A DNA stretch of 64,000 bases, from positions 84,155 to 148,154 of the forward strand of contig JAVHQC010000025.1 of the NCBI GenBank assembly GCA_036170915.1, given 5' to 3'. Source of the DNA: Cyanobacteria bacterium auto_48_18. GTDB taxonomy: Bacteria; Cyanobacteriota; Vampirovibrionia; Obscuribacterales; Obscuribacteraceae. A program made the position numbers. Every line of letters starts with the position of its first letter. The first letter of the stretch is position 1. Of this stretch, positions 39,001 through 45,000 are shown piece after piece.

Positions 39001-42000
39001 CTTCTTCGGCAATTTTCAGAAGAAGAGCGTATTCATTTTCTTCGAAGACGAAACGATCGAGCATTTCGCAATCGTAAGAATGGCCGTCTTCACTTTCGAG
39101 AGTGATTACAGCAATTTCTTGTTCTTCCGAATTAGGGGCTTCTGTCACTGTACTTACCTCAATTAAATCCGAACATCGGAAAGCTCGACCAATTTATTCA
39201 ACTGCTGCTCTGTTCCCAGAGCAATTAAATCATCACCGGCCCGGAAAATCAGGTCAGGTGAAGGATTGGATATCAGCTTACCATTTTGATTAACAGCCAG
39301 GATCATGGCCCCCGAAGTCTGCTTAATGTTTGCATCTTTCAATGCCAGGCCCACTAATGAAGAGGCATGACCAAGCCTGACTTGCTCCATGCGCAAATCG
39401 TACTCTGGAGTAGACATGACAACATCGAGAAACTGAGTCACCAGCGGATGGGTGACGGCAGTAGCCATGCGCTTGCCGCAAATAACATAAGGCGAGATCA
39501 CCATGCTGGCACCAGCCCTGCGCATCTTGGCTTCTGTGCCTGGGTTGGCAGCTCGTGAAACTATTTTGATACTTTCGTTAAGTCCTTTAGCCGACAGAGC
39601 AATAAATGTATTGGCAGTATCGTCATCAAGAGCGCAGACAATTCCTTTTGCCGTCAAGATCTGTGCTGCTAAAAGCACATCGTCTGAGCTGGCATCTCCC
39701 TGTAAAACCAGATGCCCGGCCTCGGACGCCAGCTTGGCGCGCTCAGGCTCAATTTCAATTAAGACGAATTCAATTTTGTTGTGATTGAAATGTGCAATTA
39801 CTTCTTGACCGGTGCGACCGTAACCGCAAACTATCTGGTGATTGCTTAGTTTGGCAATTTTTTGTCGCATGCGTCTGGCTCCCAAATTAAAACGGAGAAA
39901 AATGTCCACCATATCGCTTAGCACCGACAGCACGACACCAGCGCCAACCAAAATCAATAATATGGTGTAAAGCTTTCCTGCGGACGTAAGAGGGTGAGTT
40001 TCGCCATACCCGACCGTAGTCAAGGTTATGACAGTCATGAAAAGTGAATCTAGAAAATTCCAGTGCTCAACCAGCATAAAGCCGAGCGCTCCGAAGAGCA
40101 CAAAGCCCACCAATCGGGCTAAATCCTGCAAAAATCTCCTGGCAACCGCATCTCTCAACTCTTTTTAAGACCTATCTATGAACGCCAGGTAATGAGCATT
40201 TGTGCCGAAACAATAAAATAGAACGAAAACTATCATAAACGAGTTGGGGAAAGTTCCCGCTAGCATCTATTATTTGCTTTGCTGATAGGCATAGCCTAGA
40301 CCAGCAGCAGTACAAGAAGCAGTAATTGTTTTAGTTCAGTCCAGCAATTTAACACCAGTAGACATCGGAGAACCAATGAGCACAGTTCTAGAGAAGACCC
40401 AGGGTAAAGTCGTTCAGGTTATCGGACCTGTAGTAGACGTTGAATTTCCTGGCGGACATCTACCTGAAATTTATAACGCTATTGTTATTGAAGGCGTCAA
40501 TCCAGCCGGCGAAAATATGAGAGTTGTTTGCGAAGTGCAACTTTTGCTGGGTGACAACCGCGTCAGAAGCGTATCAATGAGCTCCACCGATGGTATGACC
40601 AGAGGCATGGTAGTTACCGATACCGGTAAACCAATTTCAGTTCCTGTTGGCAAAGGCACACTGGGTCGCATTATCAACGTGCTGGGCGAAGTGGTTGACG
40701 AAGGCCCTGAACTGAAGGCCGATGATTACTGGGAAATTCACAGACCTTGCCCAGATTTGATTGATTTGCAAACTGATACCGTGATTTTCGAAACTGGTAT
40801 CAAAGTTGTAGACTTGCTCGCTCCTTATGTTAAGGGTGGAAAAATTGGTCTATTCGGCGGAGCCGGCGTAGGCAAGACCGTTATCATCATGGAACTGATT
40901 AACAACATCGCTCAGCACCACGGCGGTTATTCGGTGTTTGGCGGCGTAGGCGAACGCACTCGTGAGGGTAATGACCTCTGGCATGAAATGAAAGACTCGG
41001 GCGTTATCGACCGAGTAGCACTGGTGTACGGTCAAATGAACGAGCCACCAGGAGCCAGAATGCGCGTTGCTCTATCAGCTCTCACAGTAGCCGAATATTT
41101 CCGTGACGTATCTAAGCAAGACGTGTTGCTCTTCGTAGACAACATGTTCCGCTTCACTCAAGCCGGCTCTGAAGTATCAGCCCTACTGGGCCGCATGCCA
41201 TCAGCTGTAGGCTACCAGCCAACTCTGGCATCAGAAATGGGCCAATTGCAAGAGCGTATTACGTCAACCAAAAACGGTTCGATTACATCTGTACAAGCTG
41301 TATACGTACCGGCCGATGACTTGACCGACCCAGCTCCTGCCACCACATTTGCCCACTTAGATGCCACCACAGTGCTATCACGTCAAATCGCCGAACTTGG
41401 AATTTATCCTGCGGTAGATCCACTGGCTTCTACTTCCACAGCTCTAAAACCTGAAGTCGTAGGACAAGAACACTATGATATCGCCCGTGGTGTGCAACAA
41501 ACATTGCAACGCTACAAAGACTTGCAAGATATCATCGCCATTCTTGGTATGGATGAACTTTCAGCCGATGACAAACAAGCTGTAACTCGCGCTAGAAAAA
41601 TTCAGAAATTCATGAGCCAACCGTTCACAGTTGCTGAAAACTTCACCGGCCGTAAAGGCAGCTACGTCAAGTTGAAAGACACTGTTGAAGGCTTCCGTCA
41701 AATTCTCGAAGGAGAAGTTGATGATTTGCCTGAGGCTGCTTTCTACATGGTCGGCAACATCGAAGAAGCTAAAGAACAAGCTAAGACGATGAATTAATGA
41801 AGAAGAAGCATCAACTCGAGCCCGCAGCTGAAATCAAACCATTGAAGACACCAGAGGAGACTCCGGTGCCGGTTTCAACATCGCGCAATATTTTTGTTTT
41901 CGGACGACTCGAAAACGAAATCACTTTGCCGACGATCAAAAAGTTGCTGCGGTTCAATGAGCGTGATCCAAAAAAACCAATCAATATGTACATCAATTCG

Positions 42001-45000
42001 GCCGGCGGCAACGGTTACAACGCAGATGGCATTATCGCCGTCATGCATTCCATCGAAGCACCGGTCAATACGATTTGCTTGGGTCACGCTCTTTCTGGTG
42101 CTTGCGAAATTTTGGCGTCTGGAACCGGTGAGCGCGTTGCCTACGAATTTTCTACATTGATGTTTCACCAGACTCTCTGGGAAGCTGAAGGCGACATCAC
42201 TAATTTAGAAATTCAGGCCACTCAGGGCAGGCGTTTTCGCGAAGCTCAAATTGAGCTTTTGCACCGTTGTTCCGGCCAAGATAAAGCGCGTATTGCTAAA
42301 GACATTGAACGCGATCACTATCTATCTACCAGCGAAGCGCTTGCTTACGGCCTCATAGACAGAGTAATCGTGCACAACGGAAATCCGGGCTCAAAAACCG
42401 CCAAAGACAAAACTAAGTCTAAATCCAAGACAGCCAATCAGCCCGTGGCAAAAAAAGCAGCGGCTCAAAACAAGACCACCAAAAGTACAAAAACACAAAA
42501 ATAACAGCGCTAAAGCTAGACAAAATTAGAGAAAGCAAATGGCAAACACAATCAATCTGAAAATCATCACCCCAGAAAGAGTCGTATTCGACGACATGGT
42601 GGAGCAAGTTACAGCCGTGGCTAACGACGGCGAACTGACTATTCTTCCCGGCCATGAACCGATTGTCACCACGCTGGCCGTAGACGTGTTGCGTTTTAAA
42701 GTAAAAGGCGAAGAAGAAACCGCTGCTATTATCGGCGGCATTATGAACGTCAACAACACTGAAGTTGAAATTCTCTCCGACATGGCCGAGCTGGGCATTG
42801 AAATTGACGAAGCGCGCGCCAGCCAGGCCAAGTCAAAACTCGAAGCAGAAAAATCACAGAAGACTGACAAGCTTGACGCATACGTGACAGAAATGGCTCT
42901 CTCAAGAGCTATGACTCGCATTAAGGCCGCTGAAATGGCCAAGCTCCGACGTCGCGGTCGCGTTTAACAAATCAGCTCCACTTATTTAAGTTGCGGGATT
43001 AAACTTTTGTCGAGTCTCGAAGTTTCCGAGTGATAATAGCGGCATATTGACATCAACTCGTCCCCCCGGAGTATCGATATGCCACATGAATGGGAAGCCG
43101 CTGAAAAACCAGCGGTGAATGACGCTACGGAAAAAGTAGCAAAAAACGACTCACTCAATTTACTAGACCTCAAAGCCGATAAAGCTCCTCCAGTTTCAGA
43201 CTCTAATAATCAAACGAAAGCCACAATGAAGGGTTTTCCTGATGTTGAAATGTTTGATTCGACCCAACAGAACTCCCCCAAGAAGATTGAAAATCAGAGC
43301 GCAATCAATGCAGCTGAAAAGCCACAATATAAAGGCACAAACAGCTGGGCCGAGCTGGAAAATTACACACTGGCTACAGCTCCGGTTGATAGTATGCAAG
43401 GAAAGAATCGCGACGCTGTCAATGTAACCGAAGAGCCAAAAACTGAGGGCAAAGGCGGTTGGGCTGCGCTAGAGAAGCACACACTGGCCACAGCTCCGGT
43501 TGATAGTACGCAAAGGAAAAATCGCGACGCTGTCAATGTAACCGAAGAGCCAAAAACTGAGGGCAAAGGCGGTTGGGCTGCGCTAGAGAAGCACACACTG
43601 GCCACGAGCAAGCCCGAAAAATAAAGTCAAAAACCGACTGTTAGAGCTGACCGCACTCGAGTCTGCGGTGTGCGCCCGATGAGCGTCTCGTATGGGCCAT
43701 GGTCTTTCTCGCGCTTAACCATGGTAGTTGAAGTACCACCATCAAAATTAATTGCGTCAACGGCACCAAGTTTTTTTAACAGCTTAGCTAAATCGGCTAA
43801 ATTAAGCCCAGACGAAAACTCGTCTTGCCCTTTGCCTGCCACAGCCAGAACGAGCATATAACCATCATCAGTGAGGCCCACGGCGGTGCGTGCCGCAGTG
43901 CGTCCAACACCAATTGAATCGACCTTTCGTCCATCGGCTTCAGTGCGCACAAATGCTTCGTCTTCTGCCGTTAATTGCGGCAGTAACCTTGGGCCGGCTT
44001 GCAATGATGCCACCAGTGCCATTCCTTCAGGCAATGGTTCGTTGTGCGTAGTTATTTTGACAGCGGTGGCGACATTAGCTTTGCTGCCAACTTTCTTTAA
44101 AAACCGCAGTTCGCTGCGGTTATAAATTTGTGGCAAAAAAGGCTTCAGGCGCGGGTTCTCGGTGAGCGCCTTATTCAGGCTGGGATCAGCACAGACTTTA
44201 CCTGCCAGCACAACATAGCTGGTGCTCTCACCGTTACTCAAATTGAAATAGCCACCATTTACAGCCAGCAGTGCCTTTTTCTCAGCCGCGATATCAGCAG
44301 TTGTGGCAGTTACACTTCTGGTGCCACCAGCACTTTGAGCTAACGCGGGTGCCACAGTCATATCGGCTACACGAAAAACCGCCAGGCTGGCCCTTGTTCC
44401 ACCAGCAAGGGAAAAGCAAATCACCCTGAACTTGTTTTTTTCGCTACCCGTCGAATTAGCCAACTGACGCCAGCCTTGAATCTCTTCTAGAGTCAAGCTT
44501 TGCTCAATCGATTGATGACCTGGTCGGGGCGAAAAAATAGATCCAACTTTTTTAGCGGGAGCGTCAGCGCAAACAGGTTGTGATATGGTCGCCGCAATAA
44601 CCAACGCCAGTGAGAACTTATCAATTGCGGGCATAAAACCTCAGTTTTGGCAGGCAATTTATTGTAACCAAAACTGCAAAAACCTGCTTAGCAAGGGTTA
44701 GCTGTTTCCAAAAGTGGAATATAGCCCCTAGCAAAACGAATTTGCTTCTGCCCAAAAATCTATGGCAACACCAATTCCAGGTAGCAAATATGGCCAGACA
44801 CTAGCATGCCAGAGTTTCCGCCTAACGACAAATTGGTTTTGCAAACTGCATTTTACGACGCTCTCAAGCAGCTGCCAGATAGCGAAGCGCGCTCAACTTT
44901 GCAGACGATCTTTGACATGTCTCAAAAAATGATAGAGCAAGAAGTGGCGCATAGCCATGAGCTTGCTCTACAGTTCGAAATCTTCTCTAACTTATCGAAA

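Follow-up and report, generated by a model that had tools for sequence, protein, structure and literature searches.

The window analysed here, a stretch of 64,000 nucleotides from the Cyanobacteria bacterium auto_48_18 (order Obscuribacterales), carries on its + strand three genes in head-to-tail order, as shown by the ORF map and the sequence: atpD, a gene for a ClpP-like protein that we name ClpL, and atpC. The atpD gene (40376-41797) encodes the F1 ATP synthase beta subunit (473 residues); it matches TIGR01039 with 828.9 bits against a cut-off of 462.85 and contains the Pfam domains ATP-synt_ab, ATP-synt_ab_N and ATP-synt_VA_C. Only two ATP-synt_ab matches occur in the genome, the alpha subunit on contig C36 and this protein, which is thus the sole F1 beta. 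The clpL gene (41797-42504, 235 residues plus stop) is identified by the ORF map, sequence, Pfam, a ClpP fold in its AF2 model and orthologs throughout the order. A 34-nt spacer (42505..42538) leads to atpC (42539-42967), which encodes the epsilon subunit (142 residues; TIGR01216, 106.6 bits against a cut-off of 67.25) with both its β-sandwich and its C-terminal helical domain (Pfam ATP-synt_DE_N and ATP-synt_DE).

The junction between atpD and clpL reads TAATG, so that a single A, at 41797, ends the atpD stop codon TAA and begins the clpL ATG. This one-base overlap and the gene order had been claimed in the genome-wide survey's note, and both are confirmed. Spacing is tight in related loci, ranging from -1 to 39 nt between atpD and clpL (33 loci) and from -11 to 71 nt between clpL and atpC (34 loci). 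A scan of the window found no promoter- or terminator-like sites on the + strand between atpD and atpC. The presumed promoter region of the unit is the intergenic segment upstream of atpD (40159..40375, + strand), which separates atpD from a divergently oriented K+ channel gene (- strand); a simple scan found no sigma-70-like site on the + strand of this segment. Judged from gene order, co-expression of ClpL with F1 beta and epsilon is plausible.

ClpL matches the Pfam family CLP_protease with 134.1 bits over profile positions 15-181 of 182, compared with 294.7 bits for the genome's canonical ClpP, reproducing the survey's 134 and 294 bits. It lies below every NCBIfam ClpP cut-off (130.6 vs 228-249 bits), is 34-41% identical to other ClpPs, which agrees with the survey's 39% for the best Swiss-Prot hit, and matches 110 ClpP sequences in the PDB at E <= 0.001. 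The AF2 model has a mean pLDDT of 82.5, with the core above 90, and its top Foldseek matches are all ClpPs, with target TM-scores of 0.80-0.92 and rmsd values of 1.0-2.2 Å relative to the solved structures. The ClpP-fold core, including the handle, comprises residues 30-194 (41884..42378; pLDDT 76-98), as defined by the model, Foldseek and dN/dS.

The catalytic residues, which the survey had also recognised, are all in place. Alignment with E. coli ClpP puts Ser100 (codon 42094..42096) at the position of the nucleophile S97, His124 (42166..42168) at that of H122 and Asp173 (42313..42315) at that of D171, directly following the oligomerisation-sensor residue Arg172. Conservation was assessed over 121 sequences, namely the window protein and the best 120 of 366 matches, with identities of 60-95%. 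Ser100, His124, Asp173, Arg172 and the oxyanion residue Gly71 are invariant in 121/121 of this set, and their invariance over such a range of identity is what one expects of an active enzyme. In six within-genus pairs dN/dS is 0.006-0.039 for the ClpL core, 0.020-0.039 for atpD and 0.034-0.067 for atpC; purifying selection on the core is as strong as that on F1 beta and epsilon. We conclude from the sequence that ClpL is a divergent, lineage-specific ClpP-family serine peptidase, apparently active. A non-proteolytic role, in which ClpL would be a structural or chaperone-like F1 accessory, or a regulator built on a ClpP-fold scaffold and using its triad for binding, would fit the altered handle and cleft motifs described below and a basic tail that could bind an acidic surface. 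The invariance of triad, oxyanion glycine and sensor arginine in all 121 sequences (the best 120 of 366 matches and the window protein) makes it very improbable, however, and inactive paralogs such as ClpR, unlike ClpL, have lost the catalytic triad.

Distinct differences from canonical ClpPs are seen outside the catalytic centre. Residues 1-29 (41797..41883) form a variable, low-complexity segment in place of the axial loop and helix A of ClpP. It lies outside the Pfam match, which begins only at profile position 15, and apart from an MKKK-type start it is unconserved among the 121 sequences; it is predicted to be disordered, its pLDDT in the AF2 model being about 50-58, with no secondary structure and no helix before the first strand. 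Its dN/dS is 0.23-0.57, and in the order's second family only a few residues of it remain. The survey's reading of a divergent ClpP with an intact triad, fixed in position within the order and plausibly co-expressed, stands; its 12-residue deletion could not be reproduced. In alignments with PDB ClpPs the core shows single-residue gaps only, and ClpL residue 29 falls on ClpP residue 28, so that the N-terminal segments are of about equal length; in sequence they are unrelated. Neither the N-terminal loop nor helix A of ClpP is present in ClpL; the whole gating segment has been replaced. PMC9035409 assigns to the N-terminal motif of ClpP both the gating of the pore and contact with ClpX.

A second set of changes affects the handle and the substrate cleft. 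The handle strand and QXT-motif position, residues 127-135 (L-W-E-A-E-G-D-I-T; 42175..42201 by alignment), is almost frozen: among the window protein and the best 120 of 366 matches, Trp128, Glu129, Ala130, Gly132, Asp133 and Thr135 occur in 121/121 and Ile134 in 120/121. Relative to ClpP, the HQP motif (described in PMC9035409) has become an invariant HQT, which contains His124, LGG has become LWE and QAT has become DIT, while the cleft strand GG(S/V)(V/I)T is replaced by GGNGY. The handle and cleft motifs are thus altered yet frozen. The pocket of ClpL is lined by more polar residues than that of E. coli ClpP. At two of these positions the resident canonical ClpP deviates as well, so the polarity is no proof that unfoldase docking has been lost.

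These features bear on whether ClpL heptamers stack on canonical ClpP heptamers, as in ClpP1P2, with ClpX or ClpC docking on the canonical ring, ClpL adding a second specificity and the operon position being only regulatory. PMC9035409 offers a precedent in heterocomplexes whose ATPase binds to one ring alone and in which a ring whose QXT motif has diverged needs its partner for activity. The genome encodes exactly one canonical ClpP besides ClpL, together with several Clp-type ATPases, and the triad and sensor arginine of ClpL are retained. We nevertheless regard such a two-component protease as unlikely. The resident ClpP, encoded in a tig-clpP-clpX cluster, has fully canonical handle motifs and shows no sign of adapting to a partner, and no clp gene adjoins clpL. 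In the ClpL handle, Trp-Glu takes the place of the Gly-Gly found in ClpP's ring-ring strand, and a ClpL ring would leave the distal pore ungated. To our knowledge, moreover, the ClpP1 and ClpP2 paralogs of known pairs retain both their N-terminal segments and canonical handle strands.

The survey's basic C-terminal tail is real. Residues 195-235 (42379..42501) form a disordered extension (pLDDT 52-63) rich in Lys, Ser, Thr and Ala. In the 114 of 121 sequences that have the YG-x-x-D anchor pattern (the other seven were dropped), the part beyond the anchor carries a median net charge of +12 (range +3 to +22); composition and charge are conserved, whereas sequence is not. Comparable polybasic tails are rare in the genome, occurring in 13 of its 3052 long ORFs. 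Most ClpL proteins carry the tail; it is missing from those of the order's second family.

Of the order's 107 genomes, 102 contain a ClpL ortholog scoring at least 247 bits, and the remaining five have an atpC locus that is either missing from the assembly or truncated. Searches of 294 genomes from the class's other families gave nothing above 116 bits, and those of 150 genomes of the phylum nothing above 109 bits, which bears out the order-wide conservation and absence elsewhere reported by the survey. The gene lies between atpD and atpC in all genomic loci inspected (30/30 and 5/5), and in metagenomes the arrangement is complete and ordered at 62 of 73 loci and cut by a contig end at the other 11, with none contradicting it. 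It has been moved or lost in none of the 102 genomes with an assembled locus; in one it is frameshifted, possibly through an assembly error. ClpL is thus fixed between atpD and atpC across the order and unseen in sister groups. A literature search found no published report of a protease gene within an atp operon.

The order consists of non-photosynthetic relatives of cyanobacteria, and a ClpP-type protease gene sits here within the unit of their only ATP synthase. It is the gene order that suggests a protease working with this enzyme. The synteny, however, is a single evolutionary event followed by inheritance by descent, and essential, coupled neighbours would hold a trapped gene whatever its function. 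ClpL could accordingly be a stand-alone, ungated and active peptidase with substrates unrelated to ATP synthase, serving for example in peptide turnover or as a lineage-specific regulator; the operon would merely provide strong housekeeping expression, and the gene would be frozen in place since the pair that flanks it must stay together. Its single origin, with every occurrence inside one order, the unrelated gene contexts of its closest relatives and the lack of any co-varying feature found in beta or epsilon all fit this reading, and the strong constraint on the core shows that ClpL matters, not which substrate it has. Yet insertion between translationally coupled F1 genes should upset epsilon dosage, and the gene is nonetheless fixed with tight spacing wherever it is seen, with no move or loss in those 102 genomes. 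We consider independence from ATP synthase a real but somewhat doubtful possibility.

Our tentative preference, held at rather less than an even chance, is that ClpL acts on ATP-synthase subunits as a peptidase that has no gate, needs no unfoldase and is co-expressed with F1 beta and epsilon. One transcript would carry beta, ClpL and epsilon, with ClpL translated by termination-reinitiation, and ClpL would build ClpP-like rings with an ungated pore. In mutant studies, a ClpP ring lacking its N-terminus is reported to be open and to work with no ATPase. By our proposal, the ungated pore would let ClpL dispense with an AAA+ unfoldase when cutting unstructured polypeptides, and its specificity would be altered. 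Its clients would be ATP-synthase subunits, most probably beta or epsilon chains that are in surplus or have not been assembled, or else the C-terminal domain of epsilon, which is flexible and inhibitory. ClpL would then be a quality-control or regulatory factor for F1 and not a Clp protease of general use. The polybasic tail, which the large family has and the small one does not, may be an accessory that anchors ClpL to an acidic surface and would be dispensable for the core function. In Chlamydomonas, attenuation of ClpP stabilises non-assembled ATP synthase subunits, according to PMC6681370. No order-specific beta feature co-occurring with ClpL was found; epsilon in the order has a slightly longer, basic C-terminus, a trait not unique to it. 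Among longer proteins no fusion of ClpL to an ATP-synthase domain was found, which is weak evidence.

ClpL shares the fold, triad, oxyanion glycine and sensor arginine with canonical bacterial ClpPs, both that of E. coli and the resident one, but has neither their axial loop and helix A nor their HQP, LGG and QAT motifs, and it adds the polybasic tail; the resident ClpP adjoins clpX, whereas ClpL lies inside the atp operon. ClpL does not look like a copy of the resident ClpP, since a tree branch (SH-aLRT 95) separates it from all canonical ClpPs and groups it with other rare ClpP-like proteins lacking the N-terminus. The ClpP1P2 systems of Mycobacterium, Listeria and Pseudomonas likewise have a second, diverged, triad-bearing paralog beside the main ClpP, and their genes usually adjoin each other or clpX; diverged QXT motifs are known among them (PMC9035409). 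ClpR of cyanobacteria and plastids, from the same phylum, is also a lineage-specific ClpP paralog, but its triad is gone, while that of ClpL is kept in 121/121 (window protein and best 120 of 366 matches).

The ClpP-related head maturation proteases of phages resemble ClpL in having the ClpP fold without the ClpX-coupling N-terminus, and by language-model features the Clp clusters closest to ClpL are mostly viral (0.93-0.94), a lead only. ClpL nevertheless scores 60.9 against the cut-off of 120 for the phage protease model NF045542 and 87.8 for phrog_94, on which the resident ClpP scores higher (155.4). The best phage matches, at 31-41% identity, are no closer than cellular ClpPs, and no phage genes flank clpL. 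The closest relatives outside the order, at 41% identity, are exported, uncharacterised ClpP-like proteins of Gemmatimonadota (P0123, L072-L075), sister to ClpL in the tree (SH-aLRT 86). Like ClpL they lack the ClpP N-terminus and have the Trp-Glu handle strand; unlike ClpL they have a signal-peptide-like N-terminus, a PDZ-domain protein as neighbour and no atp genes nearby, so the family is not intrinsically tied to ATP synthase.

As a non-subunit gene kept in an ATP-synthase operon, clpL recalls the accessory genes atpI and atp1 and the plant CGL160, whose products are small membrane proteins and not, like ClpL, ClpP-family proteases. An atp1 gene is present here too, heading the genome's other atp operon. 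Atp1/CGL160, which is encoded as an accessory gene in the atp operons of cyanobacteria, promotes accumulation of ATP synthase, as described in PMC4383579.

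The gene for ClpL, the 235-residue ClpP-family protein, is encoded at window positions 41797-42504, within a head-to-tail series on the + strand in which it follows atpD (F1 beta, 473 residues, 40376-41797) and precedes atpC (F1 epsilon, 142 residues, 42539-42967), as read from the ORF map. Both flanking genes exceed their NCBIfam equivalog cut-offs, atpD with 828.9 against 462.85 for TIGR01039 and atpC with 106.6 against 67.25 for TIGR01216. At the atpD/ClpL junction the sequence TAATG makes base 41797 common to the stop codon of atpD and the start codon of ClpL, and ClpL is separated from atpC by a spacer of 34 nt. 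A simple scan of the + strand between atpD and atpC gave no promoter-like or terminator-like site, and GC content is uniform across the three genes; downstream of atpC no terminator was found, either by scan or by folding (z = -0.94). The unit is flanked by genes with no evident atp link, one for a K+ channel with TrkA-N/TrkA-C domains (39163-40158, - strand), which diverges from atpD, and one for a secreted NAGPA-type phosphodiester glycosidase (43627-44634, - strand). Directly 3' of atpC is an ORF of 181 residues (43079-43624, + strand) that belongs to no Pfam family; a 114-nt tandem repeat within it (43365-43605; 2.1 copies, 96% matches) gives rise to two near-identical units of 38 residues.

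The same arrangement recurs throughout Obscuribacterales. The three genes are collinear in all 30 of the best loci and in five further loci, which include all three genomes of the second family and one that is broken off inside ClpL. Among 73 metagenome contigs that carry an ortholog, 62 have all three genes in order and the other 11 end on one side with the expected gene on the other; none contradicts the arrangement. The distance from atpD to ClpL varies from -1 to 39 nt at 33 loci, with the one-base overlap in 12, and that from ClpL to atpC from -11 to 71 nt at 34 loci. The genome-wide survey's note had described a ClpP-like gene between atpD and atpC; coordinates, order-wide orthologs and synteny bear this out, and we regard the insertion as real and robust.

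When ClpL was used as a query against all 107 genomes of the order, orthologs scoring at least 246.9 bits were found in 102. The next-best class of matches, the canonical ClpPs, reaches at most 104.4 bits, and this gap separates the orthologs cleanly. No match above 115.3 bits was obtained in 294 genomes from the other ten families of the class Vampirovibrionia, nor any above 108.6 bits in 150 genomes sampled from the rest of the phylum, and the earlier proposal that the gene is conserved across the order and absent from other Vampirovibrionia families therefore stands. Among 1.84 billion cluster representatives, searched exhaustively, there was one full-length 50%-identity cluster (289 bits) together with three fragments, below which the scores fall to 140 bits or less. 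Close matches come from sources named Candidatus Obscuribacterales or Melainabacteria, consistent with the order given in the note. Fused forms of ClpL were not found at E <= 1e-20 among proteins of 413-2000 residues, which is weak evidence by the tool's own rating. True loss within the order was considered and rejected, since the five genomes that have no ortholog are explained by assembly gaps at atpC: four have no atpC match of any kind, and one retains just the last part of atpC, at a contig start. In a nearly closed genome of the order, G039 (locus L037 on G039:C2, reverse strand, ~840-1430 of the reverse complement), ClpL is frameshifted after about residue 50 between an intact atpD and an intact atpC; the assembly may be in error here, or the gene may be a true pseudogene.

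Other families of the class were sampled at six atpC loci, of which four have atpD immediately adjacent to atpC and lack ClpL. The remaining two (L043 in genome G108 and L044 in genome G112) have no atpD within the 1.5-kb upstream flank and, as they come from two other families, indicate that the beta-epsilon pairing is not universal in the class. The insertion of ClpL is therefore derived within the order, and as it is a single event, the many genomes do not provide independent evidence.

ClpL securely belongs to the ClpP family, and equally securely lies outside canonical ClpP. Its match to Pfam CLP_protease (PF00574, MEROPS S14) scores 134.1 bits, the cut-off being 20.2, and covers positions 15-181 of the 182 in the profile. 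An AlphaFold2 model (mean pLDDT 82.5, core above 90) is confident for the core, residues 31-190, and has the ClpP alpha/beta fold; the top structural matches of this model in Foldseek are solved ClpPs, with E-values down to 3.6e-20 and TM scores of 0.80-0.92. Both ends of the protein are disordered in the model, and no helix (helix A) precedes the first strand. The profiles for canonical ClpP are all missed, with 114.7 against 308.6 for TIGR00493, 130.6 against 249 for PRK00277 and 130.6 against 228 for PRK12553.

The predicted catalytic apparatus is intact. In an alignment of the window ClpL with the best 120 of 366 matches, Ser100, His124 and Asp173 of the Ser-His-Asp triad, the oxyanion glycine Gly71, and Arg172, which precedes Asp173, are invariant in all 121 sequences, activity being a prediction from sequence. 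A non-catalytic role for ClpL is accordingly one to which we attach very little probability. Several motifs that characterise canonical ClpP are changed, and each change is frozen within the family in the same alignment: the HQP of canonical ClpP has become HQT, the LGG of the handle strand has become L-W-E, and the cleft strand GG(S/V)(V/I)T has become GGNGY, while the QXT motif, QAT in ClpP, is replaced by D-I-T, which is invariant or nearly so. ClpL thus has none of the canonical HQP, QXT and Gly-Gly strand motifs of the handle; the sensor Arg is retained.

The N-terminal motif that forms the canonical gate and ClpX contact is also absent. Profile positions 1-14 are unmatched, and the ClpL segment ahead of the first core strand is disordered, does not align to ClpP and, except for an MKKK-type start, is variable among orthologs. 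Between 24 and 45 residues (median 29) precede the FGR anchor, the final six or so being part of the core. Passages of PMC9035409 set out the roles of the ClpP N-terminal motif, as axial pore gate and ClpX/ClpA contact, and those of the handle, QXT, HQP and sensor Arg. In most members the core is followed by a tail of 17-74 residues in which net charge is conserved (median +12) but sequence is not; in the second family the N-terminal segment is essentially gone, as is the tail, leaving a protein of ~173 residues. Basic tails as a proteome-wide habit can be dismissed, as only 13 of 3052 long ORFs in the window genome end in a comparable one. At the positions of F49, Y60, F82 and F112 of E. coli ClpP, the hydrophobic docking sites for the IGF/LGF loops of the unfoldase, ClpL has R/K, N, S and S/V respectively and is more polar; the resident canonical ClpP of the window genome also deviates at Y60 and F82, so this is no clear sign that docking has been lost.

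That resident ClpP is the only canonical one in the genome; it scores 294.7 bits and is encoded in a classic tig-clpP-clpX array, and the genome also contains an SppA-like protein and several Clp/Hsp100-type ATPases. With a canonical partner available, ClpL might provide a second ring for it, a reading that we judge unlikely. The resident ClpP itself (L001:1468-2184, - strand, on G000:C25 upstream of the window) has 238 residues, roughly 40 of them additional to and ahead of the usual mature N-terminus, and the adjoining trigger factor has a Lys-rich C-terminal tail.

Comparison of six within-genus pairs gives dN/dS values of 0.006-0.039 for the ClpL core, the ranges for atpD and atpC being 0.020-0.039 and 0.034-0.067 respectively, from which it follows that the protein itself is strongly constrained and is not a spacer. 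The N-terminal segment is relaxed in the same pairs (0.23-0.57), and the values for the tail are noisy.

In an IQ-TREE tree of 67 rows, with which a FastTree run agrees, ClpL forms one group (SH-aLRT 94) whose sister is a set of exported ClpP-like proteins of Gemmatimonadota (SH-aLRT 86). A branch with SH-aLRT 95 divides ClpL and other rare ClpP-like proteins that lack the N-terminus from all canonical ClpPs, including the resident ClpP, others of the class and phylum, and that of E. coli; given the long branches, these placements are tentative. The nearest relatives outside the order, represented by two loci on Gemmatimonadota MAG contigs (L072:3665-4531 and L075:3854-4582) and by the proteins P0123 and P0140, constitute an uncharacterised group in which a signal-peptide-like N-terminus replaces the ClpP gate and the handle strand has Trp-Glu. 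In two loci the Gemmatimonadota genes adjoin a gene for a PDZ-domain protein, and no atp genes are nearby. The second-best match in the exhaustive search, P0122 (470 residues, NCBI source; 140 bits in two stretches), has two tandem ClpP-like domains, both without the canonical N-terminus. A language-model feature search (Atlas) hinted at a phage origin for ClpL, but this finds no support in NCBIfam, where the phage head maturation protease NF045542 gives 60.9 against a cut-off of 120, in PHROGs, where ClpL scores below the resident ClpP for phrog_94, or in tblastn against phage records, and the neighbouring genes are atpD and atpC.

The genome has only two ATP-synt_ab genes, for alpha, on another contig, and for the window beta; the contig with alpha has the order atp1-a-c-b'-b-delta-alpha-gamma. 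We conclude that the organism has one F-type ATP synthase, its genes divided between two operons as in cyanobacteria, and that ClpL lies in its beta-epsilon operon. ClpL is a ClpP-fold protein that has an intact catalytic apparatus, lacks the N-terminus that gates the pore and couples to an unfoldase, has a remodelled but frozen handle and cleft, and is encoded by a reading frame that adjoins those of beta and epsilon in the sole F1. The three genes are probably carried on one transcript, with translational coupling, and ClpL may assemble into rings with an ungated pore; such a pore would make cutting independent of an unfoldase, so that ClpL could cleave unstructured chains, with a new specificity. 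The gene's position, and only that, further suggests ATP-synthase subunits as putative clients. The complete reading, of a co-transcribed, ungated and unfoldase-independent ClpL that acts on these subunits, is one we favour tentatively, as something short of probable. The same enzyme could instead have clients unrelated to ATP synthase, which is possible but somewhat doubtful.

A link between ClpL and ATP synthase is a reasonable hypothesis drawn only from conserved gene order. In Chlamydomonas chloroplasts, unassembled ATP-synthase subunits are removed in a Clp-dependent manner, according to PMC6681370, and accessory genes of atp operons can be assembly factors, as PMC4383579 indicates. A dedicated F-type ATP-synthase protease, synthesised in concert with beta and epsilon and docked near F1 with the help of its polybasic tail on the acidic F1 surface, might trim or remove epsilon, specifically the inhibitory C-terminal domain, or clear unassembled beta; we think this rather improbable. 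Such an enzyme would control both the latency of the ATPase and the stoichiometry of F1. It would mean that a bacterial ATP-synthase operon has a protease built into it, the first such instance, and that F1 is regulated by proteolysis. No convincing order-specific indels that could mark a processing site were found in beta or epsilon, and a complex prediction for beta, epsilon and ClpL scored 0.00 against a mark of 0.32 but, being run without controls, carries no weight either way. A short extension rich in Arg and Lys generally forms the end of epsilon in the order, and the epsilon subunits of one genus (atpC at L024 and L033) have an insertion of 12-15 residues in the beta-sandwich domain that is absent from other members.

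A protease gene that is found between beta and epsilon order-wide, with a rate of evolution as low as that of the F1 subunits, suggests one of two things: an unrecognised step of proteolytic control or quality control of F1, or a natural ClpP that works without gate and unfoldase. In either case ClpL offers a compact natural 'open-gate' variant in which to study the connections between gating, handle motifs and specificity, and its gene can serve as a clean marker of the order; should the ATP-synthase link prove real, it would also open a testable route to the tuning of ATP hydrolysis versus synthesis in non-photosynthetic relatives of cyanobacteria. Our literature search, whose coverage of subscription journals was thin, found no description of a clp gene in an atp operon, nor of ClpP in Vampirovibrionia/Melainabacteria.

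Few gene arrays in bacteria are as strongly conserved as ATP-synthase operons, and to our knowledge the extra genes found in them are those of small assembly factors. Within the Clp system, cyanobacteria and plastids possess ClpR, an inactive ClpP paralog that has lost residues of the catalytic triad. ClpL is not an inactive paralog of this kind: unlike ClpR it retains the complete triad, in every one of the 121 aligned sequences.
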